From assembly GCA_963739795.1 (NCBI GenBank), contig CAVUBL010000010.1, forward strand, positions 178,799-242,798: a stretch of DNA of 64,000 nucleotides, in the 5' to 3' direction. Both the position numbers and the translations under genes were made by a program. The notes beneath the pieces were generated by a model. It searched no databases, had not been told where the DNA came from, and saw only the letters and a list, made by a program, of their open reading frames with translations. This document shows, piece by piece, positions 1,596-63,585 of the stretch (positions within the stretch are counted from its first letter, which is position 1; every line of letters starts with the position of its first letter). The DNA is from an uncultured Acidobacteriota bacterium. Lineage in GTDB: Bacteria > Acidobacteriota > Thermoanaerobaculia > Multivoradales > DATKCC01.

Positions 1596-1660
1596 ACCCC
1601 CACATCCCCTCGATCCCCTTCCCACCCTCAAGGGGGGAAGGGGACGCCCCCTCCCGACTC
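1596..1660 (-). repeat. copy A of a ~60 bp GC-rich palindromic dispersed repeat (the ttcccccc arm pairs with gggaagggga)
   Basis: Its reverse complement aligns over about 55 nt with 43088..43150 and 63520..63585. The shared core is gggggcgtYYccttcccccc-N8-gggaaggggatYgaggggttg. It lies between the convergent stops of the 62..1588 and 1697..2578 genes. Coordinates approximate. Confidence 0.6.
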
Positions 1661-1696
1661 CGTTTCGGCCGGACGTGGCCTCACAGACCCTGCGCT

Positions 1697-2578
1697 CTAC
1701 TCCGGCCTGGTCGCCTCCGGGTGGGGCTTCTCGGGGGGCTGCGGGTCTTCCAGGAGCTGGGGGTCTTCGAGGATTGCGCGGAGGAGGCGGGTGAGGCGGG
1801 CGCGGGCGGCCGCGCCGGCGCGCAGGACGTCTTCGTGGTCCAGGGGGCCCTCGGAGGCGCCCGCCGCCGCGTTGCTCACCACCGAGAGAACCAGGCAGGC
1901 GAGGCCCATGTGGCGGGCGGCGACGACCTCGAGGACGGTGGACATGCCCACCAGGTCCGCCCCCAGGCCGGCGAGCATCCGGACCTCGGCGGGAGTCTCG
2001 TAGCTGGGACCGGCCACGCCCGCGTAGACCCCCTCGGAGAGCTCGATCCCGAGCTCGGCGGCCCGGGCCCGGGCGAGCCGGCGCAGGCGAGGGTCGTATG
2101 CCTCGCCCAGGTCCAGAAAGCGCGGACCCCAGTCGGGCGGCCAGAGGCCCCGGAGGGGGTTGAGCCCGGTGAGGTTCAGGTGGTCGCGGACCAGGGCCAG
2201 GCTCCCCGGGGAGATGGTGGGGGAGAGACCGCCGGCGGCATGGGTCATCACCAGCACCCGGGCGCCCAGGAGGGCGGCGAGGCGGACCGGAAAGACGACC
2301 TCGAAAGGATCGTAGCCCTGGTAGGCGTGGAGCCGGCCCCGGAAGTAGAGGACCCGCCGGCCCGGCAGCGTCTCGAACACCTCGACTCGGTGGGGATGGC
2401 CGGCGAGAGGGTGGACCGGGAAAGGGAGGATCTCGGCCAGGTCGACGGGTCCGTGGTCCGGAGCGCAGAGATCGACCGCCAGTCCCGAGCCCGAGACCAG
2501 GGCGACCTCGGGCCGCGGCCAGCCGCGCCGGTCCCAGGCCGCGACCGCCGCCTTCAGGCTCTCGATGCGACCGTCCAT
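1697..2578 (-). CDS. purine nucleoside phosphorylase, PNP/MTAP family 2
   Basis: The translation carries PNP-family II motifs (GSGLA..., [27 protein letters not shown]). I place the start at the internal Met of MDGRIESLK; the ORF-track start is TTG-shown-as-M further upstream. Confidence 0.8.
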
Positions 2579-2751
2579 GGACCTTGATTCTAGGTCGCTC
2601 CTCTTCGGCGTCCATGAAATGCATTCTGGGGAAGGCGCCAAGGTGGACCAAGGCGAGGACCCGGCGGACGCCTCTGCCCGGCGCTACGGCACGAATGCAT
2701 AATCGGGTACAGTCTCGGCCACGTGGCGCGCGGTGCGGCCGGGAGACTTTC

Positions 2752-4242
<1,491 letters not shown>

Positions 4243-4274
4243 GGCGGCGGAGCTCCGTCTCGGCCGGAAGGGGC

Positions 4275-5468
4275 TTGCGGTTGTTCCGCTCGCGCCTGCC
4301 GTTTCCCGTCCTCCTCGCTCTGCGCTACCTGCGGAGCACCCGCCGGGACGCCTTCACGACCTTTCTCTCGGTGGTGGCGGTGGGCGCCATCACGGTGGGG
4401 GTGGCGGCCTTGATCCTCTCGCTCTCGGCCCTCGCCGGGTTCCAGAGCCTGCTGCGCTCGGAGGTCCTGGCCCAGACCCCGGAGATTGAGGTCGCCCTGC
4501 CCGACGACCTGGCGCCGAAGGCCGAGGTCGCCGCGGAGCGGACCGCCCGCGGGGTGACGGGAGTGCGCTCGGTGGCGGCGGTGGTCCGGGGGCACGGTTG
4601 GCTGGTGCGGTCCGGGCGCGTGGTGCCCGCGGACCTCATGGGCTTCGAGGGCGCTACGCCCCCCGCCCTGCCCGGCATCGAGGGTTCGGGGCGGGGTCTC
4701 TACCTGTCCCGGACCCTGGCCTCGTCGTGGGCGCTGCGTCAGGGAGCCGTGGTCGAGGTCGTCTCGCCGCGACCCACCTTGACCCCCATGGGCCCCCAGC
4801 CGCGCCTGCGCAGCCTTCCTCTGGCCGGCACCTACTCGGGCGGACGGGTGATGGAGACGGAGCGCGCCGCCCTGCCCCTGGACGTGGCCGAGAGCCTTCT
4901 GGGAAGGGGCCGGAGGCACCTGCTGGTGGACGCAGGAGGGCTCGACGCGGCCCTGGCCCTCGCCCCGCGCCTCGCCGCCGTCCTGCCCGCGGGCTCTCGC
5001 GTCGACACCTGGAAGGACCTGAACCGGCCGCTCTTCTTCGCCCTCCGGCTCGAGCGGCTCTTCCTGTTCCTGGGCGTGTCGCTGATCGTGGTCGTGGCCT
5101 CCCTCGCTCTCCTGGCCGACCTGGCCCTGATCCTGGCCAACAAGCGCGAGGACATGGGGATGCTCCTGACCCTCGGGGCCACCCCCCGCACCCTGCGGCG
5201 GGCGTTCTTGCTCCTGGGCGGGCTCCTCGCCCTCCTCGGCTCCTTCGTCGGCTCGGTCCTGGGGGTGGGCGCCTCGCTCCTCTTCGACCGCTTTCGGCTG
5301 ATCCATCTGCCGGGCGACGTCTTCTTCGTCGACTACATCCCCTTCCAGGTGCGGCCGGCCAACCTGGTGATCATCCTGACGGTGACCCTGGGCCTGGCCT
5401 TCGCCGCCTCCTTCTACGGCGCCGGCAAGGCCGCCGCCCTGGAACCCATCGAGGCACTGCGGCGATGA
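4275..5468 (+). CDS. LolC/LolE-family lipoprotein-release ABC permease (FtsX-like)
   Basis: Four-TM FtsX/MacB-type permease with a periplasmic domain, followed directly by lolD. The TTG start at 4275 has a GGAAGG Shine-Dalgarno 4 nt upstream. The alternative start is the TTG at 4281. Confidence 0.75.
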   Translation: MRLFRSRLPFPVLLALRYLRSTRRDAFTTFLSVVAVGAITVGVAALILSLSALAGFQSLLRSEVLAQTPEIEVALPDDLAPKAEVAAERTARGVTGVRSVAAVVRGHGWLVRSGRVVPADLMGFEGATPPALPGIEGSGRGLYLSRTLASSWALRQGAVVEVVSPRPTLTPMGPQPRLRSLPLAGTYSGGRVMETERAALPLDVAESLLGRGRRHLLVDAGGLDAALALAPRLAAVLPAGSRVDTWKDLNRPLFFALRLERLFLFLGVSLIVVVASLALLADLALILANKREDMGMLLTLGATPRTLRRAFLLLGGLLALLGSFVGSVLGVGASLLFDRFRLIHLPGDVFFVDYIPFQVRPANLVIILTVTLGLAFAASFYGAGKAAALEPIEALRR

Positions 5469-5523
5469 AGATCCTCGGAGCCGGTCGGTCGCGAATGGGT
5501 GCGGGTCGGGGAGTCGGGGGGCG

Positions 5524-6222
<699 letters not shown>

Positions 6223-6303
6223 CAAGCGTCCGTCCGCCCGAGACCGCGGGAGGACGGAGAGTGGGAGCACCGCTCTTCGACCGAGCTGAGGCAGAGGCAG
6301 GCG

Positions 6304-8736
6304 ATGTTCGAGAAGTACAACGAGAAGGCGCGCCGGGCGCTGTTCTTCGCCCGGTATGAAGCGAGCAAGCTGGGCAGCCGGGTGATCGAGTCCGAGCACA
6401 TACTGCTCGGCATCCTGCGGGAGGGGGAGGAGACGGTCACCGAGATCTTCCGCAGGTTCCATCTCAAGCCGGAGGAGGTCCGCCGCGAGATCGAGGGCGA
6501 ACGAGTGTTCGTCGAACGCATCTCCTCGACCGCCGAGCTGCCGCTGTCGGAGGAGTCGAAGAAGATCCTCGCCTACGCCTCCCACGAGGCCGAGAGCATG
6601 CTCCACCAGACGGTCGGCTCGGAGCACCTGCTCATCGGCATCCTGCGGGTCGACGCCTGCCTGGCCATGCGCATCCTGGTGCAACACGGCCTGGACGTCT
6701 ACACCGTGCGCGAGGAGGTCCTCGCCATCGCCAAGGAGCGCGAGGCGTCGCAGCAGAAGAAGGAGCTGCCGTTCATCGCCGAGTACGGTCGCGATCTGAC
6801 GACCCTGGCCGGCGAGGGCGCCTTCGATCCCCTGATCGGCCGGGAGGAGGAGGTCGACCGGATCGTCCAGATCCTCTCTCGCCGCACCAAGAACAACCCG
6901 ATCCTCCTGGGCGAGCCGGGAGTGGGCAAGACCGCCATCGTCGAAGGCCTGGCCCAGCGCATCGTCGACGGCCGGGTGCCCATCTTCCTGGCCAACAAGC
7001 GGATCGTGGCGCTCGACCTGTCGCTCATCGTCGCCGGCACCAAGTACCGAGGCCAGTTCGAGGAGCGCCTCAAGGGCATCCTCAAGGAGCTCAAGGAGTG
7101 CCGGGAGCTGATCGTCTTCATCGACGAGATCCACTCCCTGATCGGCGCCGGCTCGGCGGAGGGGTCCCTCGACGCCGCCAACATCCTCAAGCCCGCCCTG
7201 TCCCGCGGGGAGATCTCCTGCGTCGGCGCCACGACCCTCAAGGAGTACCGCAAGTACATCGAGAAGGACCGCTCGCTGTTGCGCCGCTTCCAGGCGATCC
7301 AGATCGACCCGCCGAACGAGGAGGAGACCCTCTCCATCCTCCAGGGGGTCAAGGACCGCTACGAGGCCTTCCACAAGGTCCGCTACACAGGGGCGGCCCT
7401 GCGCACGGCGATCTACCAGTCGAGCCGCTACATCCCGGACCGCCACCTGCCGGACAAGGCCATCGACATCATGGACGAGGCCGGAGCCCGGGTGAAGCTG
7501 CGCCGGGTGCGCGACACCCAGAACGTGCGCCGCCTGGAGCAGGAGATCCGCGACGTGGTGCAGGAGATGAAGGCGGCGATCTCCGAGAAGGAGTTCGAGC
7601 GGGCGGTCTTCCTCCGGGAGCGGGAGATCGAGCTGCGCGAGGACCTCGAGCGCCTGAACAGCTCCGCCCAGGAGGAGGGGCCCCTGGAGGTCACGCGCCG
7701 CGATATCGAGGAGGTGATCTCCTCCTGGACCGGCATCCCGGTGGCCAGCCTCGAGACCGAGGAGGCCGAGCGCCTGCTACGCATGGAGGAGACCCTCAGG
7801 CGCCGCGTGGTCGGCCAGGACACGGCGATCAGCGCCATCAGCCGCGCCATCCGCCGTTCGCGGCTCGGGGTCTCGAACCCCCACCGTCCCATGGGCTCCT
7901 TCATTTTCCTGGGGCCGTCCGGGGTCGGCAAGACCGAGGTCGCCCGGCGCCTCTCGGAGTTCCTCTTCGGCAGCGTGCGTGCCCTGGTGCGCTTCGACAT
8001 GAGCGAGTACATGGAAAAGCACGCCGTCTCCAAGCTGATCGGCTCTCCACCGGGCTACGTGGGCCACGACGAGGGCGGGCAGCTCACCGAGCGCATCCGC
8101 CGCCAGCCCTACTCCGTGGTGCTCTTCGACGAGATCGAGAAGGCTCACCCCGAGGTCTCGAACCTGCTCCTCCAGATCCTCGAGGACGGCATCCTGACCG
8201 ACGCCTACGGCAACGAGGTGGACTTCAAGAACACCCTGGTCCTGATGACCTCGAACATCGGGAGCCGGCTGGTGGTGCGGGGCGGCAGGATGGGCTTCGG
8301 AGAGGCCGACGACGAGGCGGCCTTCCGCAAGCTCGAGGAGGAGATTCTCGCCGACCTGAAGCGCTCGTTCAGCCCCGAGTTCATCAACCGGCTGGACGAA
8401 GTGATCGTCTTCAACCCGCTCTCGCGGCTGCATCTGCGCGCCATCGTCGACATCTTGCTCGACGACGTCAACGCCACCCTGGCAGACCGGAACCTGACGG
8501 TGGTGATCTCCGACGCGGCGAAGGAGTGGCTCCTCGAGGAAGCGGGGATCGACCCGTCGACCGGAGCCCGCCCTCTGCGCAGGACGATCCAACGGCACAT
8601 TCAGGACGCCGTCTCCGAGATCCTGATCGAGCAGCACGGCGAGGAGATCACCGAAATCGACGTCGACGTCGACATCGCGGGCGACGGCCTGCGACTGGAG
8701 CCGCACGTCGCCGAGATGGCGGTGCCCGAGACCTGA
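6304..8736 (+). CDS. clpC: ATP-dependent Clp protease ATP-binding subunit ClpC-like (AAA+ double ring)
   Basis: Two Clp N-terminal repeats, a D1 domain ([15 protein letters not shown]), a linker and a D2 domain ([16 protein letters not shown]..., sensor motifs). At 810 aa it is too short for the ClpB middle domain. Confidence 0.8.
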
Positions 8737-8914
8737 GATACCCTGTCCATCGAAGGTTGACGGACTACCAGGAGATCTCCTCACGGCAGCGGGCCGCCGG
8801 GCGAGCATTTCACTTGCAGCGACCGATCTGTCAGAATCTGCCGCCGACCGGGCGGGAGGGACCCGTCCGGCTCCCGCCCACCGTCGAGAACAACCCAAGG
8901 GTGAATAGGACGCG

Positions 8915-11407: not shown

Positions 11408-11431
11408 ACGAAGCAAAGGAGAGTCGAACCG

Positions 11432-12052
11432 ATGTCCCTCCACCCCCGGATTCGCAAAGCGTGCCGCCGCGCCCGCTGCGTGGCGGCCCTCCTGCTCCTG
11501 GGCGCCTTGACGCCCGCCGCGTCGCCGGCGCAGCAGGCCCCGGCGCCGGCCAAGCCGGCACCGGGCGCCAAGGCACAGAGCCCGGCGGCCTCGAGGCCCG
11601 CGAAGGTGGCCGTCATCGATGTGGAGCGCATCCTCCTCGAATCGAACCGGGGCAAGAAGGCCCTGGCCGAGATCGAAGCGCTGCGCAAGAAGAAGCAGCA
11701 GGAGGGGGATGCCAAGCAGAAGGAGATCACCGACCTGCAGCAGAAGATCAAGGACGGCCAGCTCTCGCTCTCGGAGGAGAAGCTCGCCGGTCTCAAGAAG
11801 CAGCTCGAGGACCAGCTCATCGCGCTGCAGAGGTTCCAGGACGACGCGAAGCGGGACCTCTCGAAGAAGCGCGACGAGGTCCTGGACCAGATCGAGAAGA
11901 GCGTGTTCCCGGTAATCAACAAGATCGGTGCGGAGGGTGGCTATACACTGATCTTCAACAAGTACCGGAGCGGCCTGGTGTACGCGGACGACGCCGTGGA
12001 CATCACCGAGCAGGTCATCGCACGGTACAACCAGACGACCTCCGGTCAGTAG
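11432..12052 (+). CDS. skp: periplasmic chaperone Skp/OmpH
   Basis: Signal peptide followed by a long coiled-coil OmpH-like region (VAVIDVERILLESNRGKKALAEIEALRKKKQQ...). AAGGAGAG Shine-Dalgarno 8 nt upstream. Canonical position between bamA and lpxD. Confidence 0.8.
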   Translation: MSLHPRIRKACRRARCVAALLLLGALTPAASPAQQAPAPAKPAPGAKAQSPAASRPAKVAVIDVERILLESNRGKKALAEIEALRKKKQQEGDAKQKEITDLQQKIKDGQLSLSEEKLAGLKKQLEDQLIALQRFQDDAKRDLSKKRDEVLDQIEKSVFPVINKIGAEGGYTLIFNKYRSGLVYADDAVDITEQVIARYNQTTSGQ

Positions 12053-12058
12053 CCGCCT

Positions 12059-13126: not shown

Positions 13127-13604
13127 GACCGAACGTCCACAGGCGGCGGGGGAGGACGGAGGGGACTCGCCCCGCTGGGACAGCCGCTGGATCATGGGGG
13201 TCCTGCCCCACCGTTACCCCTTTCTGCTGGTCGACCGGGTCCTCGAGATGGAGCCCGGCAAACGGATTGTCGCGATCAAGAACGTGACGATCAACGAGGA
13301 GTTCTTCGTCGGCCATTTCCCGGGGCATCCCGTGATGCCCGGTGTGCTCCTCGTCGAGGGGATGGCCCAGGCGGGAGGCATCCTGCTGCTCCACGATCGT
13401 CCGGACACCCGCGACAAGCTGGTCTACTTCGCCGGCATCGAGCGCGCCCGTTTCCGCCGCCCGGTGTTCCCGGGAGACCAGGTGCGCTACGAGGTGGAGG
13501 TCCTCGCCCTGCGCCAGACTTTCAGTAAGCTGGCATGCCGGGCGCTGGTCGACGGCAAGGTGGCGGCGGAGGCGGTGATCTCGTCGGCGACGGTGGACCG
13601 GTGA
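13119..13604 (+). CDS. fabZ: 3-hydroxyacyl-ACP dehydratase
   Basis: Hot-dog fold motifs ([31 protein letters not shown]). The TTG start overlaps the lpxD stop (TTGACTGA). The alternative start is the ATG at 13194. Confidence 0.85.
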
Positions 13605-38460: not shown

Positions 38461-38535
38461 TGGGGCGTCGCCAAGTGGCAAGGCACGGGACTTTGGATCC
38501 CGCATTCGTAGGTTCGAATCCTACCGCCCCAACCA
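38461..38535 (+). tRNA. tRNA-Gln (anticodon UUG)
   Basis: Cloverleaf folded by hand. The 7-bp acceptor is UGGGGCG/CGCCCCA and the D-stem is the 3-bp type typical of tRNA-Gln. The anticodon stem is CGGGA/UCCCG with loop CUUUGGA, and the T-arm is GUAGG-UUCGAAU-CCUAC. Discriminator A and an encoded CCA. Confidence 0.9.
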
Positions 38536-43066: not shown

Positions 43067-43087
43067 CTCGCGAGACCCCCGCCCGGC

Positions 43088-43150
43088 GACGCACGGGCGG
43101 GGGCGTTTCCTTCCCCCCGGAGGTTGGGAAGGGGATCGAGGGGTTGCGGG
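43088..43150 (+). repeat. copy B of the ~60 bp GC-rich palindromic dispersed repeat
   Basis: Aligns with copies A (reverse complement) and C over the core gggggcgtttccttcccccc...gggaaggggatcgaggggttgcggg. Lies 20 nt after the hppA stop. Coordinates approximate. Confidence 0.6.
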
Positions 43151-43171
43151 AGCGATCCGATCAGTTACAAT
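43144..43171 (+). promoter_or_regulatory. putative promoter of the rpsF-rpsR-rplI operon (TTGCGG-N16-TACAAT)
   Basis: Hexamers found by eye. The -35 element lies inside the 3' end of repeat copy B. A strong 11-bp GC hairpin (43187..43215) follows immediately, consistent with a structured leader. Confidence 0.3.
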
Positions 43172-43311
43172 AGGCCGCTCGAATCGCCGGGCCGGCGCTC
43201 ACCGCGCCGGCCCGGTCACTCTAACCTCTCTGTTCCGCCGGGCCCGCACCGGGCCCCCTTGCCGAGGTGATGGCGGGACCGAATGGCCAAAGGGAGGCAT
43301 CAGCCAAACCC

Positions 43312-52146: not shown

Positions 52147-52206
52147 CCTCGGTTCCCGTTGCCCGGTCGCCGGTTCCAACCGAGTCGGCGCCGTGGAGGT
52201 CTCCCG

Positions 52207-52632: not shown

Positions 52633-52635
52633 CCC

Positions 52636-54471: not shown

Positions 54472-54495
54472 TCTCGGGATAGACTGTCCCTTCGT

Positions 54496-55314
54496 ATGAT
54501 GGGAAAACTCGCCACGATCCAGGTCCTGTCCCGCTTCCAAGAACGGGTGCGCCGGGACCTGGACCGCTCGCCTCTGGATCTGGACTCCGATACGCACCGG
54601 CGCCGGCTCGCGGAGATCCTCGTACGCTGTGGCCGCGACACCCACTACGAGTTGCTGGGCGTGTCCCCCGGGGCCGGCGAGAGCGAGGTGCATTCGGCCT
54701 ACCTCCGCCTCGCCCGCGAGGTCCACCCGGACCACGCCGACCACCTCGGCCTCGGCGGGCGCCAGGGGGTCATCGAGGTCCTCTTCGAGCGGGCGACGGA
54801 AGCCTACCTGGTGCTCTGCGACCCCCATCGGCGCAGCGAGTACGACCGCTGGGCCGCCGTCGAGTCCCGGCGGACGGAGGAGGAGCGGCGCGAGGAGGCC
54901 CGCGACCTGACCCGCGATCTGGTGGCTCGGGCCGCCATCCTGGTCGACCGGGAGGACTACCACTTCGCCTTGGAGATCCTGCGCCAGGCGGTGCGCACCG
55001 ATCCGGAGTCCCACGAGGCCTGGGCGCTCCTCGGCAGGGTCCAGGCGCGCAACCCGAAGTGGCTGCACATGGCTAACGACAACCTGCGGCGCGCGATCGA
55101 GCTCGCGCCGGACCAGATCGAGTACCGCTACGCCCTGGCCGAGGTGGAAGAGAAGCGGGGGCGCCGCGAGCCGGCCCTGCGGCTCTACGAGCAGATCCTG
55201 GAGAGCCTTCCCGGCCACCCCCTGGCCACCGAGGCCCGCGACCGCTTGGCCAGCAAGCTCAAGGCGGAGACCAAGGAGGGCCGGCGGGGTGCCGGGCTCT
55301 TCCGCAAGCGCTGA
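54496..55314 (+). CDS. DnaJ-domain (J-domain) protein with TPR repeats
   Basis: J-domain (HYELLGVSPGAGESEVHSAYLRLAREVHPDHAD, HPD present) followed by TPR-like repeats. Confidence 0.75.
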   Translation: MMGKLATIQVLSRFQERVRRDLDRSPLDLDSDTHRRRLAEILVRCGRDTHYELLGVSPGAGESEVHSAYLRLAREVHPDHADHLGLGGRQGVIEVLFERATEAYLVLCDPHRRSEYDRWAAVESRRTEEERREEARDLTRDLVARAAILVDREDYHFALEILRQAVRTDPESHEAWALLGRVQARNPKWLHMANDNLRRAIELAPDQIEYRYALAEVEEKRGRREPALRLYEQILESLPGHPLATEARDRLASKLKAETKEGRRGAGLFRKR

Positions 55315-55433
55315 CCTGCGTCCGCCTTCCCGGCCGGGAAGAAGGATGGGGCGTCCAGTCCCCCTTCAGAGGTGGACACGGAATCGAACGCTCGCCGGGA
55401 AGGGTAGGCCGCCTCGATTCCGTTAGACTAGTG

Positions 55434-55855
<422 letters not shown>

Positions 55856-55873
<18 letters not shown>

Positions 55874-56776
55874 TCGTTTCCACCCCCGGTCCGCCCCGGC
55901 GACCGGGTGGGCGTGGCGGCCCTCTCGGGGCCGGTGGACGCGGAGCGCCTGGCCCGAGGCCTGGCGGCCCTCGAAGAGCTCGGCTTCGAGCCGGTGCCGG
56001 CGGCGAACCTGGGCTCTCGATCCGGCCTGTTCGCCGGCTCGGACGCCGAGCGGCTCGACGCCTTCCATCGCCTGGCTGCCGATCCGTCGATCCGGGCCGT
56101 GATCTTCGCCCGGGGCGGGTACGGCGTCACCCGCCTCCTGCCCGGGATCGACTGGGAGCTCCTCGCCCGCCACCCGCGGGCCTACGTCGGCTACTCCGAC
56201 CTGACACCGTTTCTCCTCGCCGTGGTCTTCCGCCTCGGCTGGGTGGCGTTCCACGGGCCCATGGTGGCGGCAGACCTGGCGCGCGGCCTCTCCGAGCGGG
56301 AGGAGCGGAGCCTGCTCGGGGCCCTGGCCGGCGAGGTGGCGCCGGAGCTTCTGCCCGCGGCCACCTGGCTCCGCCGGGGCGAGGCGCAGGGGCCGCTCCT
56401 CGGTGGCTGCCTCAGCCTCCTCGTCTCGTTGCTCGGCACGCCCTGGGCACCGCGGCTCGAGGGTTCGATTCTCTTCTGGGAGGAGGTCGGTGAGCCCATC
56501 TACCGCCTCGACCGAATGTTGACCCACCTCAGGCTGTCGGGTAGTCTCGCCGCCATCGGAGGCATGGCGGTCGGCCACTGCCGGCCCGTGGGCGAAGGCG
56601 CCGAAGGGGCTCCTCTCCGGCCCGATCAGCTCGCGGAGGTGGTGGCCGGTTTCGCTTGGCCGGTGGCGGTGGGGCTGGAGGCGGGCCACGAGGCGCCGAA
56701 CCTGACGTTGCCCCTCGGTGCCACGGCCCGGCTCGACTCCGAGGCCGGCGGCTTGGAGGTGAGGTTTCCTCGATGA
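55856..56776 (+). CDS. ldcA: LD-carboxypeptidase (peptidase S66, muramoyltetrapeptide carboxypeptidase)
   Basis: S66 motifs (PGDRVGVAALSGP, IFARGGYGVTRLL, YVGYSDLTPFL, ILFWEEVGEPIYRLDRMLTHL). The annotated ATG overlaps the rnpB 3' end by about 18 nt. An in-frame GTG near 55904 is an alternative start. Confidence 0.75.
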
Positions 56777-57564
56777 ACAACACCGTGTTCAAGACCACCG
56801 GGCGCCCACCGGCGCCCGCCTATAAGAGTGTCGACCGGGCGGAGGGAGAGTGGGTCTTCGAGGAGGCGACCCTCGGCACCGAGATGTACATCGTGCAGGA
56901 GGGACAGGTCGAGGTCCTCAAGAGGGTCGGGGAGGAGGATCGCCAGCTCACGGTGCTCGAGAAGGGGGATTTCTTCGGCGAGATGGCCCTCCTCGAGGGG
57001 CTTCCCCGGGCTGCCGGCGTCCGCGCCCTGACCGCGGTCAAGCTTCTCGAGATCAACGGTGCCACGTTCAACAAGATGCTCCGGGACAACCCGGAGATCG
57101 CGGTGCGGATGATGCGCAAGCTCTCCCGCCGCATGCGCGAGACCGACGCCCTGCTGCGCGAGCTGGGCGCCGAGCAGATCCCCCAGGGCCCGCCGGCACC
57201 TCCGGAGCCGGCCCGCCAGGAAGAGGTGGAGACGGAGGCGGTTTCGGAGCACCTGGTGCACAAGAAGTCGGGCATGGACTTCTTCTTCGCCCGGGGAACC
57301 GAGACCAGCGTCGGCCGGCGCGATCCGGTGACCGGCATCTACCCCGACGTCGACCTCTCCCCGGTGGACAGTCAGCGCTCCATCAGCCGCCGCCACGCCA
57401 AGATCTTCCGTCGCGGGGCGAAGTACTTCCTCTCCGAGGAGATCGGCACGATGAACGGCACCTTCGTCAACGGCGAGCGCCTGGAGACCGGCGTGCCGGC
57501 CGAGGTCAAGCCGGGGGACGAGCTGCGCATCGGCGTCGTCGAGCTCGAGTTCCGCCTGTCCTGA
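56773..57564 (+). CDS. cyclic-nucleotide-binding domain protein with C-terminal FHA domain
   Basis: cNMP-binding signature (KGDFFGEMALLEGLPRAAGVRAL), a Pro-rich linker, then an FHA-like fold (SVGRR...SISRRHAKIFRRGAKYFLSEEIGTMNGTFVNGERL). ATGA overlap with ldcA. Confidence 0.7.
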   Translation: MNNTVFKTTGRPPAPAYKSVDRAEGEWVFEEATLGTEMYIVQEGQVEVLKRVGEEDRQLTVLEKGDFFGEMALLEGLPRAAGVRALTAVKLLEINGATFNKMLRDNPEIAVRMMRKLSRRMRETDALLRELGAEQIPQGPPAPPEPARQEEVETEAVSEHLVHKKSGMDFFFARGTETSVGRRDPVTGIYPDVDLSPVDSQRSISRRHAKIFRRGAKYFLSEEIGTMNGTFVNGERLETGVPAEVKPGDELRIGVVELEFRLS

Positions 57565-57575
57565 GGGCCTTTTCG

Positions 57576-58046
57576 ATGTTCGGGCGGATCATGGTGGTGA
57601 CCGGGATGCTCGCGACCGCGGGCCTGGGGCTGGTGGCGGCCCAGGGCTATCGCGGTGCCGCCGGCGGCGAGGCTCTCCGCCTCCACGTTCTGACCGCCCT
57701 GACCGCCGTCCTGGTCTTCATCCTCGCCCACGCCTGGGTCCTCTTCTACCTGGTGGGGGCCGTCCGAGTGATCGGGGAGACCGCCCGCGAGGCGGGCCGC
57801 GAGGAGCTGCTGCAGCCTGCCCTGACCCGCTTCGGCCGCCGCACCCTTCCGCCGCTCCTGGGCGCCCTGGCGGCGGGCCTGGCCCTGTTCCTGGCCGGGG
57901 TCGCGGTCTACGCTCACCAGGTTCCGGCGGCGGTTCACGGCGGCCTCTTCTGGCTGCTGGTCGCCCTCGAGCTGTGGGCCGCCTGGGGGGAGTGGCGGGC
58001 GCTCCTGGCGAGCGAGCGGATCGTGGCCGGGCTACAGGCCGCCTGA
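57576..58046 (+). CDS. hypothetical integral membrane protein (4 predicted TM)
   Basis: The ATG lies 12 nt after the upstream stop. It has four hydrophobic segments and sits between the cNMP-FHA gene and scpA. Confidence 0.45.
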   Translation: MFGRIMVVTGMLATAGLGLVAAQGYRGAAGGEALRLHVLTALTAVLVFILAHAWVLFYLVGAVRVIGETAREAGREELLQPALTRFGRRTLPPLLGALAAGLALFLAGVAVYAHQVPAAVHGGLFWLLVALELWAAWGEWRALLASERIVAGLQAA

Positions 58047-58111
58047 CCCCGTCGCGGAACCTCCCGGCGAAGCGTCTCGCCGGCCGGGGTGCGCGGTATC
58101 ATCGACTGCCC

Positions 58112-58906
58112 ATGAGCCGCCTGACTCCCCCTGTGCGCAGCCTGTTGCCCGAGTCCTGGCGGGTCGATCTTCCCCGGTTCGACGGTCCCCTGGACCTGCT
58201 CCTGCACCTGGTGAAGATCAACGAGGTGGAGATCGTCGACATCCCGGTCGCCCGCGTGTGCGATCAGTTTCACGAGTATCTATCGCTGATGGAAGAGCTC
58301 AACCTGGACGTGGCCGGCGAGTTCATCTATGAGGCCGCGCTCCTGATCCACCTCAAGTCGCGGATGCTCCTGCCCCGTCCCCGGGTCGAAGAAGGGGAGC
58401 CGGAAGAGGATCCGCGCGAGGAGCTGGTCCAGCGCCTCCTCGAGTACCGGCGCCTCAAGGAGGCGGCCCAGTCCCTGGGCGAGCTGGACAGCGTGCGCCG
58501 CGGGATCTGGGCACGGGACGTGCCGCGTCCCGACCTGCCGGCGGACGACCGGGAGCTCGACCTGGGCGACGTCTCCCTCTTCGACCTCCTGTCGGCCTTG
58601 AAGGAGGCCCTCGCCCGCTTCGAGAAGGAGCATCCGCCGCCATTCCACCTGTCCCGCGAGACGTACTCGGTGCGCGACCAGGTGCACCGGCTCCTGGGCG
58701 TCCTCGACGCCGGCCGCCCCTTCGACTTCGTGGCGGACCTGGTGGGGCTCTCGTGCCGTTCCGAGGCCATCGCAGCCTTCCTGGCCCTCCTGGAGCTCGC
58801 CCGCCTCCACCTGGTGCGCGTCCATCAGACCGGGGCCGGCGACCTGCTGCTCTACCGCACCACCCGCGAGGCCCGGAACGAAGAGCTGGAGGCGCTCAAG
58901 CCGTGA
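58112..58906 (+). CDS. scpA: segregation and condensation protein A
   Basis: ScpA motifs (FDGPLDLLLHLVKINEVEIVDIPVARVCDQFHEYL, EFIYEAALLIHLKSRMLLP). The start is taken at the Met of MSRLTPP; the track ORF begins at an upstream alternative start. Confidence 0.85.
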   Translation: MSRLTPPVRSLLPESWRVDLPRFDGPLDLLLHLVKINEVEIVDIPVARVCDQFHEYLSLMEELNLDVAGEFIYEAALLIHLKSRMLLPRPRVEEGEPEEDPREELVQRLLEYRRLKEAAQSLGELDSVRRGIWARDVPRPDLPADDRELDLGDVSLFDLLSALKEALARFEKEHPPPFHLSRETYSVRDQVHRLLGVLDAGRPFDFVADLVGLSCRSEAIAAFLALLELARLHLVRVHQTGAGDLLLYRTTREARNEELEALKP

Positions 58907-59595
58907 CCGAACGGGCGGAGATGGAAGCCGCGATCGAGGCGGTCCTGTTCGTCGCGGGCGAGCCCGTGCCCCGGCAGCGGCTGGTGGAGCTCTTCGAGGA
59001 GGCCGAGCGTGCCGAGGCCGAGGAGGCCCTCGGGGCCGTCCTCGGGCGCTACGACGGTGCCGGCCGGGGCGTCATGGTCGACGAGGCGGCCGGCGGCGTG
59101 CGGCTGGTCACCCGGCCCGAGCTCCACGAGTGGCTGCGGCGCTTCTTCGAGGCGTCGGGGACCACCAAGCTCTCCATGGCGGCTCTCGAGACCCTGGCCA
59201 TCGTCGCGTACCGGCAGCCGGTGACCGCGCCCGAGATCCAGGAGCTGAGGAGCGTCAACCCGTCCGGCGTGCTCAAGACCCTGCTCGAGCGCCGCATGGT
59301 GCGGATCGCCGGCCGCAAAGACGTGGTCGGAAAGCCCTTCCTCTATACGACGACGCGGGAGTTCCTGCTCCACTTCGGCCTCGGGAGCCTTAAAGACCTG
59401 CCGCCCCTCGAAGAGTTCGACGAGGCGTTCGGTGAGGGTGGGGGCGGGGAGGTCGGAGCGGCCGGAGCGCAGGACCGGGAGGAGAGCTTCTACCGGGAGG
59501 TGGCGGCGCTGGAGGAGATGGAATCTCTGGCCGAGGAGCCGGACGGCGAGGAGCGCGGCGAGCCGCTGGTGGGGGCAGGAGAGGAGGCGACGTGA
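58903..59595 (+). CDS. scpB: segregation and condensation protein B
   Basis: Winged-helix ScpB motifs (IEAVLFVAGEPV, LETLAIVAYRQPVTAPEIQELRSVNPSGVLKTLLERRMV). The GTG start overlaps the scpA stop (GTGA). An ATG 18 nt downstream is the alternative start. Confidence 0.85.
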   Translation: MTERAEMEAAIEAVLFVAGEPVPRQRLVELFEEAERAEAEEALGAVLGRYDGAGRGVMVDEAAGGVRLVTRPELHEWLRRFFEASGTTKLSMAALETLAIVAYRQPVTAPEIQELRSVNPSGVLKTLLERRMVRIAGRKDVVGKPFLYTTTREFLLHFGLGSLKDLPPLEEFDEAFGEGGGGEVGAAGAQDREESFYREVAALEEMESLAEEPDGEERGEPLVGAGEEAT

Positions 59596-60431
59596 GCGAG
59601 GAGAGGCTCCAGAAGATCCTGGCCCGGGCCGGGGTGACTTCCCGGCGCAAGGCCGAGACCCTGATCGAAGAGGGGCGGGTGACGGTCAACGGCAAGGTGG
59701 CGACTCTGGGGGACAAGGCCGACCCCGAGTCGGCCGCCATCAAGGTCGACGGGAAGCGAATCGAGCCCCGGACCGCCCATCGCTACCTGGTGATGAACAA
59801 GCCCATCGGAGTGATGAGCACCGGCTCCGACCCCGAGGGGCGGCCGACGGTCCTCGACCTGGTCCCGGCCCGCTTCCGGAAGGCCCTGGTGCCCGTGGGC
59901 CGCCTGGACTTCCAGACCGAGGGCCTGCTGCTGCTCACCGACGACGGCGACTTCGCCCACCGCGTGGCCCACCCCCGCTACGGCTGCCACAAGGTCTACG
60001 AGGTCAAGGTCAAGGGCCAGCCCCCGGCCGCCGAGATGGAGAAGCTGCGCCATCGGGGCGTGGTCATCGATGGCCGGCACACGGTTCCGGTGCGGCTCGA
60101 TCCCCTACGCGTGACCGGGTCCCGGGAGGGCAAGAACACCTGGTGGACGGTGGAGCTCGCCGAGGGGCGGACCCGCCAGATCCGCGAGATGTTCTTCCGG
60201 ATCGGCCATCCGGTGCAGCGCCTGCGGCGGGTTGCCATCGGCCCTCTGCGCGACGCCTCCCTGCCCCCGGGGGCGCTCCGGGAGCTCACCGAGGAGGAGG
60301 TGGAGGCCCTGCGCGGCTCGACGCGGAGCTCCCGCGGCGGGAAGGGGCGCCGGCGGCGCCCGGGCTGGGCGAGCGCATCGCCTCGGAGCTCGAAGCGCAG
60401 ACCGAGGCGAGGAACCGGAGAGAACCGTTGA
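59592..60431 (+). CDS. rluB: 23S rRNA pseudouridine synthase, RsuA/RluB family, with S4 domain
   Basis: S4 domain (ERLQKILARAGVTSRRKAETLIEEGRVTVNG), the catalytic GRLDFQTEGLLLLTDDG motif and a basic C-terminal tail. GTGA overlap with scpB. Confidence 0.85.
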   Translation: MSEERLQKILARAGVTSRRKAETLIEEGRVTVNGKVATLGDKADPESAAIKVDGKRIEPRTAHRYLVMNKPIGVMSTGSDPEGRPTVLDLVPARFRKALVPVGRLDFQTEGLLLLTDDGDFAHRVAHPRYGCHKVYEVKVKGQPPAAEMEKLRHRGVVIDGRHTVPVRLDPLRVTGSREGKNTWWTVELAEGRTRQIREMFFRIGHPVQRLRRVAIGPLRDASLPPGALRELTEEEVEALRGSTRSSRGGKGRRRRPGWASASPRSSKRRPRRGTGENR

Positions 60432-61597
60432 GGGCGGCCCGAGGCGGTCAGTCGCGGCCCGCGGGAGCCGAGGCGACACCGCCGTACCGGGCCCCGGAGT
60501 GGGTGCGCTCGCTGCCGCTCTACGCTCCGGCCGCCGCGGTCGGCTCCTCGGGGGACGTGGTCCACCTCGCGTCGAACGAGAACCCGCTCGGGCCGTCCCC
60601 GCGGGCCCTCGAGGCGCTCGCGGGGGTCACCGGCGAGCTGCATCGCTACCCGGACGCCGGTGCCTACGCCCTGCGCCGAGACCTGGCGGCGGCGGCGGAC
60701 CTCGAAGGCTCGGGCCGCGGCGGCGCGGCCCAGGTCGTGGTGGGCAACGGCTCGGGCGAGCTGATCGAGCTCCTGTGCCGGACGTTTGTGAGCGACGGCG
60801 AGCGGGTGGTCCTGTCGGCGGGCTCCTTCCTCCTCTACCGGATCGCCGCCCGGGCGGTGAACGCCGAGGTCGTCGAAGTCCCTCTGACGGCGGGCTCGAG
60901 GTGCGACCTGGAGGCCCTGGCGGAGGCCGCGGTCGGAGGCCGGGGCGGTGAGGGGCGGCCGGCGCGACTCGTCTTCCTCGCCAACCCCAACAACCCCACC
61001 GGCACCTTCGCGTCGAAGCGGGAGCTCGACCGCTACTTCGACCGGGTGGACGACCGGGTCTTGACGGTGGTGGACCAGGCGTATCAGGAGTACGTCGACC
61101 ACCCGGAGTACCCCGATGCCCTCGAGCACCTGCGCCGGGGCCGCAACGTCGTGGTCCTGGGCACGTTCTCCAAGATTCACGGCCTGGCTGGGCTGCGCCT
61201 GGGCTTCGCCTTCGGACCGGCGCCAGTCCTCGAGCCGGTCGAACGGGTGCGCAACCCGTTCAACACCTCGGCCCTCGCCCAGGCGGCGGCCCGGGCGGCG
61301 CTCGCCGACCGTGAGCATCTGGAGCGCTCCCGGCGCCACAACGCCGCCGAGAAGGCCTGGCTGGCCGCGGAGCTGACCCGGCGGGGCCTGCCACCGGTCA
61401 GCTCGGTGACCAACTTCGTCATGGTGGAGCTCCCCGGCGCCGCGGACGAGGTGGCACGGCGGCTCCTCGAGCGGGGCGTCGCCGTGCGCCCCCTGGGCGC
61501 TTTCGGCCTGCCCGAGGCTCTCCGCGTCACGGTCGGCACCCGCGCGGAGAACCTCCGCTTCCTCGAGTCCCTCGACACCCTGGAGGTACCGGCATGA
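60428..61597 (+). CDS. hisC: histidinol-phosphate / aromatic aminotransferase (class II PLP)
   Basis: Motifs NENPLGPSP, RYPD, VVGNGSGELIEL, ANPNNPTG, VVDQAYQEY and GTFSKIHGLAGLRLGFA. The proposed TTG start overlaps the rluB stop (TTGA). A GTG at 60503 is the alternative start. Confidence 0.8.
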   Translation: MRAARGGQSRPAGAEATPPYRAPEWVRSLPLYAPAAAVGSSGDVVHLASNENPLGPSPRALEALAGVTGELHRYPDAGAYALRRDLAAAADLEGSGRGGAAQVVVGNGSGELIELLCRTFVSDGERVVLSAGSFLLYRIAARAVNAEVVEVPLTAGSRCDLEALAEAAVGGRGGEGRPARLVFLANPNNPTGTFASKRELDRYFDRVDDRVLTVVDQAYQEYVDHPEYPDALEHLRRGRNVVVLGTFSKIHGLAGLRLGFAFGPAPVLEPVERVRNPFNTSALAQAAARAALADREHLERSRRHNAAEKAWLAAELTRRGLPPVSSVTNFVMVELPGAADEVARRLLERGVAVRPLGAFGLPEALRVTVGTRAENLRFLESLDTLEVPA

Positions 61598-62307
61598 ACG
61601 AGCCCCTGGAGAGCCCCTCCGTCCCTCGAACCGACGCACCCCTCGTGATCGCCATCGACGGGCCGTCCGGAGTGGGCAAGAGCACCGCCGCCCGGCGCCT
61701 CGCCCGGCGCCTGGAGGTGCCGTACCTCAACACCGGCGCCATGTACCGGGCCGTGGCCCTCGAGGCCCTCGAGTCCGGCGTGAATCCGGACGACGAGAAA
61801 GCGGTGGCGGACCTGGCGGAGCGCATCGATCTGGCTCTCGACCTCGATCCCGGCGACGGCGGGGCCCGAGTGCTGCTGGACGGCGACGCGGTGGGGGAGC
61901 GGATTCGTTCTCCCGAGGTCGGCGAGACCTCGTCGCGGCTGTCGACACACCCGGAGATCCGGCGGCGGCTGGTGGCCCTTCAGCAGGAGTTCGCCCGCCG
62001 ACACGGCGGAGTCCTCGAAGGCCGGGACATCGGTACCCGGGTGTTCCCGGAGACCCCCCACAAGTTCTTCCTCGACGCCCGGCAGGAGGTGCGCTACCGC
62101 CGCCGCTACGACGAGCTGGCTGCGGCCGGCAGCGACGTGAGCTACGGCGAGGTGACGGTGGAGATCGACCGCCGGGACCAGCGGGATGCCCACCGCGAGG
62201 AGTCGCCGCTGACCTACGACGAGAGCTACACCCTCATCGACACCTCCGACCTGGCCCCGGACGAGGTGGTCGACCGGATGGTCGAGGCGATCGGCGGGTC
62301 GGGGTAG
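61594..62307 (+). CDS. cmk: cytidylate kinase
   Basis: P-loop (IAIDGPSGVGKST), the NTGAMYRAVAL motif and the GRDIGTRVFP motif. ATGA overlap with hisC. Confidence 0.9.
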   Translation: MNEPLESPSVPRTDAPLVIAIDGPSGVGKSTAARRLARRLEVPYLNTGAMYRAVALEALESGVNPDDEKAVADLAERIDLALDLDPGDGGARVLLDGDAVGERIRSPEVGETSSRLSTHPEIRRRLVALQQEFARRHGGVLEGRDIGTRVFPETPHKFFLDARQEVRYRRRYDELAAAGSDVSYGEVTVEIDRRDQRDAHREESPLTYDESYTLIDTSDLAPDEVVDRMVEAIGGSG

Positions 62308-62316
62308 GAGACGGCC

Positions 62317-63582
62317 TCAGGGGGTGGCGGCCGGCGCCTTCGCAGGCGGGGAGAGAGGGACCAGACGCGGGGCGTCCAGATCACCGCCCGAGGACTCGGC
62401 CAGCACCAGCGACGGCCGGCCGCCGCTCGTCACACAGCCGAACAACACCGTCCAGCGCCCCTTGCCGTCGCGCAGGACCGCCGCGACGTCCAGATCCTCG
62501 TCCGCCGAGGTCGGGAGGCGCGCCGGGCCCGATGCCACCTGACGCCAGCGGCCGGCCGCGCTCATCTCGGTGAGCAAGAGGCGCTCCTGGCCGGAAAGCC
62601 GGCGATCGAACCAGACGAGGGGCAGGAGGTCCGAAGCGCCGGCGAGAGGCCGGTCCACGTCGAAGTCCCGACCCCGGGTCCAGGGCTCGGCCGTGCCCGT
62701 CGACCAGGGCCGCCACGAGGCCTGCGACCAGGAGGCTCCGCCGTCGGTGCTGCGAAAGGCCACGCCCTTCGCGGACAGGAAGGCGGCCACGCGTTCGGCG
62801 AGGGGGACGACCTGACTGCCCGCGCCGTGGCGGCCGGCGGGGAGCCCGCTCACCCAGGTCGCGGGCGCGTCCCCGGCGCTGAAGAGCCCGGTGCCGGAGA
62901 CGACCGCGTCCTCGCGCCATGGGGCGGGAAGGGCGGGCGGCGTGCCTGCGGCGGTCACCTCCAGGTGCCCGCGCGAACGCCACTCGCTTCCTTCCAGGCG
63001 GAACGCCCACGCGGTCACGAAGTGGCCGCGCCTCTCGGCATCGGCGGCTGGCCCGTGCACCACCACCCAGGGGGTTCCGGAGCGGTCGTACGTACCCGCG
63101 ACGGTGGCGGCCGAGGGCATGGCGAGGGGCTCGCCCAAAGGCTTCCATGCGCCATCCCGGAAGGTGATCGGCTGCAGGCAGCCGGCGCCGCAGGCCTCGA
63201 AGACGAAGGGCGCCCCGGGCCCCGTCGACCCGCCGAACCACGGGCCGTCGCCGGGCGTTCGCTCGATCCGGGCCGACGGCTCGGTCGGCCGCCAGTCGAC
63301 GAGGTAGGCGCCGGCGCCCGTCCCCGGCAGGCCCACCAGGACCTCCCCGGTGGCGGTGTCGAAGCTCGCCACGTTGAGGGCGGTGTCCACGTCGCAGCGC
63401 AACTTGCCGGGCGCGGCGTAGGCCGGCAGCGCGACGGCGGCCAAGGTGACCGCCGCCAGTACGACGGCGGGCCATAGACCGCCCGACGAACGGATCGACT
63501 TCGGCCTCAGGACTGTCTCGCGCGGGGGTGTCCCCTTCCCCCCCGTGGGGAGGGAAGGGGATTGAGGGGTTGTGGGGGGCAT
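62317..63582 (-). CDS. hypothetical secreted or membrane-anchored protein (Gly/Trp-rich, possibly beta-propeller)
   Basis: Convergent with cmk, 9 nt apart. It has a hydrophobic signal/anchor (LWPAVVLAAVTLAAVALPAYAAP). The only in-frame ATG upstream of it (63582) lies inside repeat copy C, so the true start is uncertain. The ORF extension beyond 63582 is rejected. Confidence 0.45.
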   Translation of the reverse strand: MPPTTPQSPSLPTGGKGTPPRETVLRPKSIRSSGGLWPAVVLAAVTLAAVALPAYAAPGKLRCDVDTALNVASFDTATGEVLVGLPGTGAGAYLVDWRPTEPSARIERTPGDGPWFGGSTGPGAPFVFEACGAGCLQPITFRDGAWKPLGEPLAMPSAATVAGTYDRSGTPWVVVHGPAADAERRGHFVTAWAFRLEGSEWRSRGHLEVTAAGTPPALPAPWREDAVVSGTGLFSAGDAPATWVSGLPAGRHGAGSQVVPLAERVAAFLSAKGVAFRSTDGGASWSQASWRPWSTGTAEPWTRGRDFDVDRPLAGASDLLPLVWFDRRLSGQERLLLTEMSAAGRWRQVASGPARLPTSADEDLDVAAVLRDGKGRWTVLFGCVTSGGRPSLVLAESSGGDLDAPRLVPLSPPAKAPAATP

Positions 63583-63585
63583 CCA
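63520..63585 (+). repeat. copy C of the ~60 bp GC-rich palindromic dispersed repeat
   Basis: gggggtgtccccttccccccc-gtggggag-ggaaggggattgaggggttgtgggggg, with a 10-bp perfect stem (tccccttccc / gggaagggga). Aligns with copies A and B. Coordinates approximate. Confidence 0.6.

Follow-up and report, generated by a model that had tools for sequence, protein, structure and literature searches.

A probable, previously undescribed REP/BOX-like family of non-coding interspersed repeats in Thermoanaerobaculia

The 64-kb window analyzed here (64,000 nucleotides of an uncultured Acidobacteriota bacterium of the class Thermoanaerobaculia, contig CAVUBL010000010.1, positions 178,799 to 242,798) contains three copies, denoted A, B, and C, of a G+C-rich intergenic palindrome. 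The explanation that we consider probable is that they belong to an undescribed non-coding family of interspersed repeats, similar in kind to repetitive extragenic palindromic (REP) and BOX elements and specific to Thermoanaerobaculia, with the spread, vertical inheritance, and mechanism discussed below; the best reading is that this family is, or once was, mobile. Related genomes show that it has spread through intergenic DNA and has then been inherited mostly vertically, some copies remaining near-unchanged and others decaying. This class of Acidobacteria is abundant in soils and sediments but has hardly been cultured, and we know of no repeat family described in it before.

Copies of the Repeat in the Window

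The window contains exactly three copies of the core unit, compared to approximately 0.01 expected by chance. Taken separately, the tail 21-mer GGGAAGGGGATYGAGGGGWTG has three exact matches against 0.01 expected from dinucleotide shuffles, and the hairpin pattern is observed three times against 0.02 expected from shuffles; a profile constructed from 105 related copies matches, at E<1e-3, copies A, B, and C and nothing more. Aligned over approximately 65 nt, the three copies have 50 invariant columns and share the invariant core gGGGGcGTcCCCTTCCCCCC-loop-GGGAAGGGGATyGAGGGGwTGyGGG. The G+C content of the window is approximately 70% throughout, and its genes were called with a self-trained caller based on codon usage, which reproduced the obvious genes.

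According to alignment, profile, and folding, copy A (positions 1590-1660, with the G-rich strand on the minus strand) consists of the core unit only; its hairpin occupies positions 1614-1644, and its CGTC tag, seen as GACG on the plus strand, positions 1643-1646. It lies between the convergent stop codons at 1586-1588 (+) and 1697-1699 (-). Copy B (43094-43162, plus strand), identified by the same three approaches, is a slightly degenerate core unit with the tag CGTT, the C-arm TTCCTTCCCCCC, a hairpin at approximately 43105-43136, and a G-tract tail extending as far as GATCCGATC. Copy C (63445-63727, plus strand) is a full composite of 283 nt, consisting of a left module (L′), the core, and a right module (R′), and it fills the whole intergenic space. 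Its core unit (63524-63585, plus strand) comprises the tag TGTC at 63529-63532, the arms at 63531-63544 and 63548-63561, and then the G-tract tail; L′ (63478-63523, plus strand) ends in ..GACGAACGGATCGACTTCGGCCTCAGGACTGTCTCGCGC and is related to the L′ modules of relatives (GTGACGAACGAGCCGAGTT..), and R′ (63586-63727, plus strand, approximately 140 nt) has at least 22 homologs among the R′ modules of relatives. Unlike copy C, which is a complete composite, copies A and B consist of little beyond the core.

An earlier note on this DNA, made from the sequence alone, had described three segments with a common core, each able to fold into a hairpin, and these statements are confirmed by the alignment, the shuffle statistics, and the profile search, with arms found in all copies and the hairpin dominating every predicted fold. 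The gene calls also bear out its placement of copy A between convergent stops (at 1588 and 1697) and of copy B between the hppA stop and rpsF. The proposed size of approximately 60 bp holds for the core and fails for copy C, where the core is the middle of the 283-bp composite.

Structure of the Core Unit

The core unit, approximately 63 bp long, consists of a CGTC or TGTC tag, a highly stable C-arm/G-arm hairpin with a stem of 13-14 bp, and a G-tract tail (GATCGAGGGGTTGCGGGGGG), in this order, the arms of the stem being CCCCTTCCC(C)CCC and GGG(N)GGGAAGGGG. It is nearly invariant in the alignment of 105 distinct copies, yielding the consensus gGGnGGGGG-CGTC-CCCTTCCCCCC-(3-5 nt loop)-GGGGwGGGAAGGGG-ATCGAGGGGwTGCGGGGGG-C(G)ATCCGAT. 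The unpaired tag (C22, G23, T24, C25) is at least 90% conserved in these copies; its variants are TGTC in copy C, with CGTC at the same site of a near-identical strain, and CGTT in copy B.

The hairpin arms of copies A and C are 13-14 nt long and 92-93% complementary, the hairpin prevails in every predicted fold of copies A-C on either strand, and consensus folding with RNAalifold retains the hairpin alone on both strands. In a second subfamily found in relatives, CCCTCTCCC/GGGAGAGGG replaces CCCCTTCCC/GGGAAGGGG, with two adjacent pairs changed on both sides (C-G to U-A and U-A to C-G, four sequences each), and these two pairs are the sole covariation seen. Such a compensatory change shows that it is the pairing, at the DNA or the RNA level, that has been conserved. 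The unit is 63 to 68 bp long, with no conservation of reading frame.

The loop is 3-5 nt long or, in several copies, contains a nested extra hairpin of approximately 40 nt. The latter sits exactly in the core loop in sampled loci (referred to by L numbers) L103 (7690-7793), L084 (2228 and 5083), L081 (3488), L055 (422), and L110 (~2880-2930), and in one copy it lies instead between two G-tracts of the tail. As these extra hairpins occur at fixed points, the element either tolerates insertions there or is their target.

The G strand carries five to six G-tracts, and the tail is as conserved as the hairpin in the 105-copy alignment. This conservation exceeds what a pure hairpin model would require, and the tail could be a protein-binding site or form a G-quadruplex. 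Two copies in one genome (L018, 5130; L093, 3517) have the same internal deletion of the C-arm, with L′ fused directly to GGGAGGGAAGGGG, and hence the hairpin-less variant has itself been copied or homogenized.

Distribution in Related Genomes

One genome per species was scanned for GGGAAGGGGATYGAGGGG, which yielded at least 105 loci, each sampled as 8 kb; approximately 85 loci among the matches listed come from 12 species-level metagenome-assembled genomes (MAGs) of Thermoanaerobaculia/Acidobacteriota. A run of nhmmer on the sampled loci, seeded with the three window copies, identified 156 units. The 8-kb samples of the 12 MAGs contain at least 150 units, and the five best-sampled MAGs at least 50, at least 26, at least 24, at least 20, and at least 16, respectively. 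The count for the source organism, whose genome is not among the sampled loci, covers the 64-kb window (three copies). Coding regions of the sampled MAGs are approximately 70-80% identical to those of the window, and the S6 gene of the window with its flanking genes is nearest to Thermoanaerobaculia MAGs. Thus, as opposed to the absence of further copies or the mere low-complexity similarity considered in the earlier note, relatives contain further copies, with conserved boundaries in more than 100 of them. As for the remaining loci outside these MAGs, approximately two thirds of the out-of-phylum matches are chance GKGIEG-coding sites within genes, without the C-arm, and were rejected.

Look-alike units of the form CTTCCCCTTCCC-loop-GGGAAGGGG-N3-5-GGGG(G)TTAGGT were noticed in other phyla, in MAGs of Bipolaricaulota, Dehalococcoidales, Ignavibacteriaceae, Bacillota, and Clostridiales, at L085 (750-815, 4240-4295, 6680-6760, minus strand), L098 (3580-3650), L049 (3350-3400), L034 (~870-910), L033 (640-710), and L066 (2000-2030, 2250-2295). 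The Bipolaricaulota look-alike is found three times within 8 kb and has another hairpin, CCCCTCCCC/GGGGAGGGG, ahead of the unit. Given the similarity of these units (CCCCTTCCC-loop-GGGAAGGGG-N3-5-GGGGTTAGG in Bipolaricaulota, Dehalococcoidia, Ignavibacteria, and Clostridia), the core may be one branch of a wider family.

Arrays and Flanking Modules

Units are either solitary or form head-to-tail arrays of 2, 3, 4, 5, or 8, in which they recur every 63-68 bp and are not separated by unique spacers. The full composite is L′-(core)n-R′, roughly 150-700 bp in length, with n = 1 in copy C; between the same L′ and R′, n equals 1, 2, 3, and 8 in L088, L013, L067, and L104, respectively. Over time, arrays have become longer or shorter by entire units.

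In three MAGs and in copy C, an L′ of approximately 45-65 nt (..GACGAACGrgCCGAG..) is followed by the core and then by an R′ of approximately 135-140 nt, whose conserved islands include GGTCTGGAGAAGCC and GGCGTGGACGGGGG; the nhmmer profile of R′ matches positions 63571-63712 of the window with E=6e-22. A different type, DASZZ, is seen in two MAGs, where the left module ..GAACGAAAyTGGTCCGTGCGCCAGGGGA and the core are followed by the right module GATGCTTCGAGTAGGCC..GCGCCGTTTCAT, a small G+C hairpin, itself with compensatory variants, and the terminal CTAG. The sequence of the composite (approximately 265 nt) is conserved across genera with few indels. One candidate explanation, that the flanks are ends of multi-copy paralogous genes, was rejected, as in all-against-all BLAST the similarity extends beyond the core by only approximately 60 nt on the left and 80-150 nt on the right, and thus the flanks are modules of the element.

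Several further features of the right flank were observed. A second short repeat module, CGACCTGCCGGAAGTGCCGCAACAGGCGAAAGCTGCGGCAT, with the hairpin GCCGCA..TGCGGC, is located approximately 90-150 nt to the right of the core in L029, L071, L065, L005, L017, and L043 and is sometimes duplicated; since it lies inside the right module of some DASZZP-type elements, these genomes hold several nested families of small repeats. An open reading frame (ORF) of approximately 43 codons from ATG to TAG (MNPAVWSRRSEERS..FEAELR*) extends on the G strand of R′ from the core end exactly to the terminal CTAG and is intact in 14 of 20 copies, of which 19 are from relatives and one from the window; the R′ of the window has neither its ATG nor its stop. 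A C-strand ORF across the DASZZ-type element was considered and rejected, its frames disagreeing between subtypes.

Position Relative to Genes

Sixty-seven of the 69 clusters with genes called on both sides are intergenic, in sampled DNA that is 85% coding. Twenty-seven lie between co-directional genes with the G strand in sense orientation, 17 between co-directional genes in antisense orientation, 18 between convergent genes, and 5 between divergent genes. If copies are oriented by the G strand, the upstream neighbor is a co-oriented gene in 50 out of 76 cases, and the CGTC tag typically follows its stop codon after 19-52 nt (median, 45 nt); for gene-start neighbors the median distance is 146 nt. 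The enrichment in intergenic regions and the orientation bias, both of which the earlier note had proposed to look for, are hence seen in the sampled loci of relatives. The preference for 3′ ends and for convergent gene pairs is a known feature of REP elements.

Gain, Loss, and Inheritance of Copies

Orthologous loci can be compared at several sites. Two operon genes that lie 7 nt apart in L040 are separated by approximately 195 nt of element in the orthologous region of L024; two species, but not the window, have a copy after ssb. At the dehydrogenase locus of copy C, the full composite is found in the window, in a near-identical strain (two SNPs, i.e., single-nucleotide polymorphisms, in the core), and in MAG CAZIIB, there with a nested hairpin in the loop; three other relatives retain remnants only, i.e., the R′ end, the L′ end, or one hairpin arm. 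At the hppA-rpsF locus of copy B, the core is intact in CAWIQD, degenerate in CAVUJU, and missing in CAZIIB. Taken together, the orthologous copies, intact or decayed, and the filled and empty sites indicate that the family is old and largely vertical, and that its copies have been both gained and lost.

Local Context of Copies B and C

Copy B is situated 15-40 nt past the stop codon (43066) of hppA, encoding H+-pyrophosphatase, and upstream of rpsF. A perfect 10-bp hairpin, CCCCCGCCCG/CGGGCGGGGG (43076-43103, plus strand), has the left G-run of copy B as its 3′ arm and is followed by CGTTTCCTTC, that is, the tag and C-arm of the element with C>T changes. Located 10 nt past the hppA stop, the hairpin together with CGTTTCCTTC constitutes the only canonical terminator-like site at copies A-C. 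On the other side, a candidate rpsF promoter (43144-43171, plus strand) consists of the -35-like box TTGCGG (43144-43149) in the tail of the element, a 16-nt spacer, and the -10 box TACAAT (43166-43171), the latter being conserved in all four species compared, one of which has no element at this site. The suggestion in the earlier note that copy B partly contains the rpsF promoter is thus backed by the conserved TACAAT and by TTGCGG in the tail, with a score in the promoter scan below the threshold. As judged from sequence, copy B appears to supply an arm of the hppA terminator and a -35-like box for rpsF, an instance of local co-option.

The rpsF leader that follows TACAAT (43176-43260, with equivalents in L113, L114, and L115) is strongly conserved in four species and contains a perfect 12-bp hairpin, CCGGGCCGGCGC/GCGCCGGCCCGG (43187-43215). 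It is probably an autoregulatory leader of the S6/S18 type, and no Rfam family matched it at threshold.

Copy C has minus-strand genes on both sides, one encoding the C-terminus of a Glu/Leu-type dehydrogenase (stop codon 63728-63730) and the other a hypothetical gene, 62317-634xx. The latter, downstream of copy C, encodes a conserved hypothetical secreted protein (62317-63495, minus strand) and is the context of the element, not a part of it. Three start candidates may be considered for this gene: ATG at 63582, inside the element; ATC at 63495, aligned with the methionine of homologs; and TTG at 63444, the NCBI start (375 amino acids). The minus-strand ORF is open from the ATG at 63582-63580 (CAT on the plus strand), which is the sole in-frame ATG before the upstream stop, and the use of this codon would add MPPTTPQSPSLPTGGKGTPPRETVLRPKS, a proline-rich extension of 29 residues ahead of the signal peptide. 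In the alignment with homologs, all 16 annotated Met starts lie at or downstream of the window ATC 63495-63493, approximately 12 of them exactly there, just before the signal peptide, and the coding signal in third-codon-position G+C (GC3) begins only at approximately 63450-63500; the NCBI start truncates the signal peptide. L′ of copy C overlaps the probable 5′ end of the gene, including the ATC codon, and GAGG 9-10 nt before this codon makes a non-canonical start there plausible. The earlier note took the element to supply the only ATG of this gene, which is literally true for the reading frame and improbable for the native start, given the starts of homologs. In the ‘CATCC’ variant of the unit, this ATG is always present on the C strand, and the simplest view is that it is in frame here by accident.

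A perfect 12-nt inverted repeat, CGGGCGCGGCGT/ACGCCGCGCCCG (63408-63419 and 63744-63755), is found in both genes flanking copy C, its arms 324 nt apart; this is probably a coincidence of G+C-rich sequence.

Database Searches

No Rfam family matches the element at gathering thresholds in a search of the whole window; the best score at the element, 26.8 bits against a threshold of 71, is a hairpin artifact, and relaxing the search to E≤10 for copy C and one relative yielded hairpin artifacts only, far below threshold. The only two RNA genes of the window at the Rfam level are class A RNase P RNA (55440-55871, plus strand, 260.9 bits) and a tRNA (38461-38532, plus strand). The core sequence was not found in the literature, nor was any description of Thermoanaerobaculia repeats, and the core has no match in IMG/VR, a search that addressed carriage by phages. 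The statement that this is not a named family is therefore upheld within Rfam and the searchable literature. The label “REP-like” given to the family is also fair, as it is a dispersed, intergenic, hairpin-forming repeat, and the label “MITE-like” (miniature inverted-repeat transposable element) is not supported, because terminal inverted repeats and target-site duplications are missing.

Discussion

Comparison with known repeat families allows us to place the element. REP elements, their mosaics (bacterial interspersed mosaic elements, BIMEs), and the REPIN-RAYT systems of gamma-Proteobacteria resemble it in being high-copy extragenic palindromes with a preference for 3′ ends and convergent genes, in long vertical persistence with decay, and in forming mosaics with other short motifs. 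REPIN-RAYT systems are characterized by a GTAG tag, inverted REP pairs (REPINs), and a flanked single-copy RAYT (REP-associated tyrosine transposase), a Y1 HUH transposase; here, in contrast, neither the GTAG tag nor inverted pairs are observed, and the arrays are direct, not alternating.

The tag points to another comparison. A CGTC tag before a palindrome is the hallmark of a super-family of REPs that includes dRS3 of Neisseria and RPE-4/6 of Rickettsia (PMC3733652). Like these, the element is a short intergenic palindrome after an unpaired CGTC, sometimes TGTC (as in copy C), it has no associated transposase gene, is often located near gene 3′ ends, and is old and common to related species (PMC3733652). 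The differences are in the stem, which is 13-14 bp long here, of G/C pairs with an internal TT/AA and C/G first, as opposed to 8-9 bp with A/T pairs first; in the tail, a conserved 25-nt G-tract versus a 3-nt CCA; in the loop, 3-5 nt or a nested hairpin versus 4-5 nt; and in the arrangement, solitary or head-to-tail versus mostly head-to-head dimers (PMC3733652). Acidobacteria are mentioned in that study only for tyrosine transposases and are not among the phyla with CGTC repeats (PMC3733652). The core family is not a member of the four described CGTC families. Similarly, Neisseria intergenic mosaic elements (NIMEs) are intergenic arrays with a CGTC-tagged palindrome that alternates with a repeat unit of 50-150 bp; however, their dRS3 flanks variable RS units in inverted orientation, whereas here the hairpin and tail make one invariant unit in direct orientation.

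In its architecture, the element is close to the pneumococcal BOX, with the layout boxA-(boxB)n-boxC (PMC3049150). In both cases, conserved end modules surround a variable number (here 1-8) of tandem hairpin units of approximately 45-65 bp, and the elements are intergenic, probably co-transcribed with their neighbors, contain accidental ORFs, and vary in unit number between copies (PMC3049150). Unlike the element, BOX has terminal inverted repeats and target-site duplications (PMC3049150), and here the middle unit is the most conserved one and also occurs alone, without L′ or R′, as in copies A and B. There is no sequence similarity to boxA, boxB, or boxC, and the host phylum and base composition are unrelated, so the likeness is architectural only.

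By analogy with RAYTs acting on REPs and with IS200/IS605, the family was probably spread by a trans-acting enzyme recognizing the tagged hairpin on single-stranded DNA, and slippage or unequal recombination would then lengthen or shorten arrays locally. The effect on the host would be mainly physical. REP hairpins block 3′-5′ mRNA decay in E. coli (malE-malF), and with this as the model, a hairpin co-transcribed at the end of an mRNA, with an energy of roughly -25 to -30 kcal/mol, would probably impede 3′-5′ exonucleases and/or pause, stall, or terminate RNA polymerase. For the role in transcription or mRNA stability put forward in the earlier note, it is the position and orientation statistics that speak, and the hairpin probably acts on mRNA 3′ ends.

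Several observations weigh against a mobile family of this kind. Clustering of 624 proteins encoded around the copies yielded no recurrent transposase-like family, the recurrent families being sensor kinases, ADOP permeases, ABC ATPases, and the like; no RAYT adjoins any copy in the sampled DNA, to which this search was limited, and the genes between inverted copies are housekeeping ones, namely, ssb, dtd, lon, and a porin-like outer-membrane protein gene. Neither the window composite nor the family ends have consistent terminal inverted repeats or target-site duplications (the 6-nt ACTGAG duplicated at the flanks in L043 has no counterpart at other copies). For two of the three window sites, orthologous copies exist in other species, which points to long residence rather than current mobility, and a core that is nearly identical between species with genes only 70-80% identical may reflect direct host selection for a function instead of parasitism. 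As to that function, a U-tract directly after the hairpin is missing at copies A and C and in the family consensus, being present only at copy B via the extra upstream arm and the C>T changes, and hence copies A and C and the consensus do not have the form of a canonical intrinsic terminator; approximately one third of the copies are opposite to the orientation of the neighboring gene; and the minimum free energy of the copies, with z-scores of -0.7 to -2.2 relative to dinucleotide shuffles, is not exceptional for such G+C content.

Some of these observations could mean direct selection by the host, so that each copy would be a cis-element, a U-tract-independent terminator or a 3′-end stabilizer, kept at its site by selection and not by selfish spread. 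We consider this unlikely, although it is consistent with the tight placement 19-52 nt after the stop, the 50:26 orientation bias, the 18 convergent versus 5 divergent contexts, the copies retained in orthologous positions at two sites of the window, a core that is extremely conserved from species to species, and the canonical terminator-like site formed at copy B. However, ordinary terminators do not have 60 nt of identical sequence, conserved flank modules, or tandem arrays of two to eight units; copies A and C have no U-tract, the antisense third of the copies does not fit, decay at orthologous sites is evidently tolerated, and some copies lie between tightly linked operon genes, where a terminator would do harm. 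Quite unlikely in our estimate is a related possibility, that L′-(core)n-R′ is a vertically maintained cis-module and not a decaying parasite, maybe a branch of a wider cross-phylum family, that is read by a dedicated trans-factor binding the CGTC-tagged hairpin and the G-tract tail; such a factor could be a non-RAYT enzyme of mobilization or recombination, or an RNA- or DNA-binding regulator of 3′-end formation. Small structured non-coding RNA genes or a riboswitch-like leader, with the 63-bp core as one domain, would explain the conservation of the L′-core-R′ composite across genera, the z-score of -2.5 for the minus-strand fold of the whole copy C region, and the variable-length insertions in the loop, similar to those in variable stems of RNAs. 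Nevertheless, this is improbable: Rfam gave no match even at E≤10, consensus folding leaves only the hairpin, R′ has no covariation support and its fold z-scores over 16 copies are close to zero (on average -0.4 for the G strand and -0.8 for the C strand), the element occurs in both orientations relative to genes, and there are arrays of the core alone.

A G-quadruplex/hairpin switch, in which the G strand folds when the C-arm is unpaired and serves as a strand-specific regulatory or replication signal, is consistent with the equal conservation of the tail and the hairpin, and of only 15 canonical motifs in the window (at least four G3+ tracts with loops of 1-7 nt), one falls on the G strand of each of copies A-C. 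It is hardly probable, as three G-tracts are sequestered in a hairpin with compensatory change, which argues that pairing rather than a quadruplex is kept; quadruplex folding would compete with this hairpin, and such motifs are common in G+C-rich DNA. IS630 and IS5 target CTAG or TA, and the composites often have CTAG, CTAA, or CTNAG at both ends, have a size of 150-270 bp that would suit a MITE left by a DDE transposon such as these, and provide a pair of filled and empty sites. This origin is nonetheless very improbable given the missing terminal inverted repeats in the window copy and the family consensus and the lack of consistent duplication of flanking bases; moreover, the boundary motifs CTAG, CTAA, TAA, and TGA coincide with stop codons of neighboring genes, almost the sole places for such motifs at 70% G+C, and the bare cores A and B do not have these boundaries. 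The chance that we deal with a low-complexity resemblance of G+C-rich sequences, a CRISPR (clustered regularly interspaced short palindromic repeats) array, or a small protein gene is negligible, even with the G+C-rich runs, the CRISPR-like periodicity of approximately 63-66 bp, and the R′ frame of approximately 43 codons intact in 14 of 20 copies. Three copies are observed versus 0.01-0.02 expected, and boundaries are conserved in over 100 copies; in arrays of relatives the entire unit of 63-66 bp is repeated with no unique spacers, and hence these are not CRISPR arrays; and in the R′ frame codon-position variability is 0.20/0.22/0.24, with no third-position bias, the start codon is missing in five of 20 copies, the Met-to-stop ORF is not intact in six of 20, and GC3 is approximately 72%, compared to approximately 90% in real genes.

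As a REP/BOX-like repeat family, the element is ordinary in kind, but the family itself is undescribed and comes from a poorly known class. Its unusual traits are the inter-species invariance of the 63-bp core, the modular layout with direct arrays, the G-tract tail, and the look-alikes in other phyla. It explains several oddities of annotation at copy C, namely, a secreted-protein gene without a canonical start, a spurious ATG in a repeat, and a truncated gene call in the database. For MAGs, the family marks likely contig breaks and errors in array length, and it provides a lineage marker and, in the manner of REP-PCR and BOX-PCR, a target for typing by PCR. To the question of how REP-like elements spread and persist, it adds a CGTC-tagged case without a transposase or terminal inverted repeats, and, if the hairpin shapes mRNA 3′ ends, it would bear on how transcripts end in very G+C-rich bacteria that do not have U-tract terminators.

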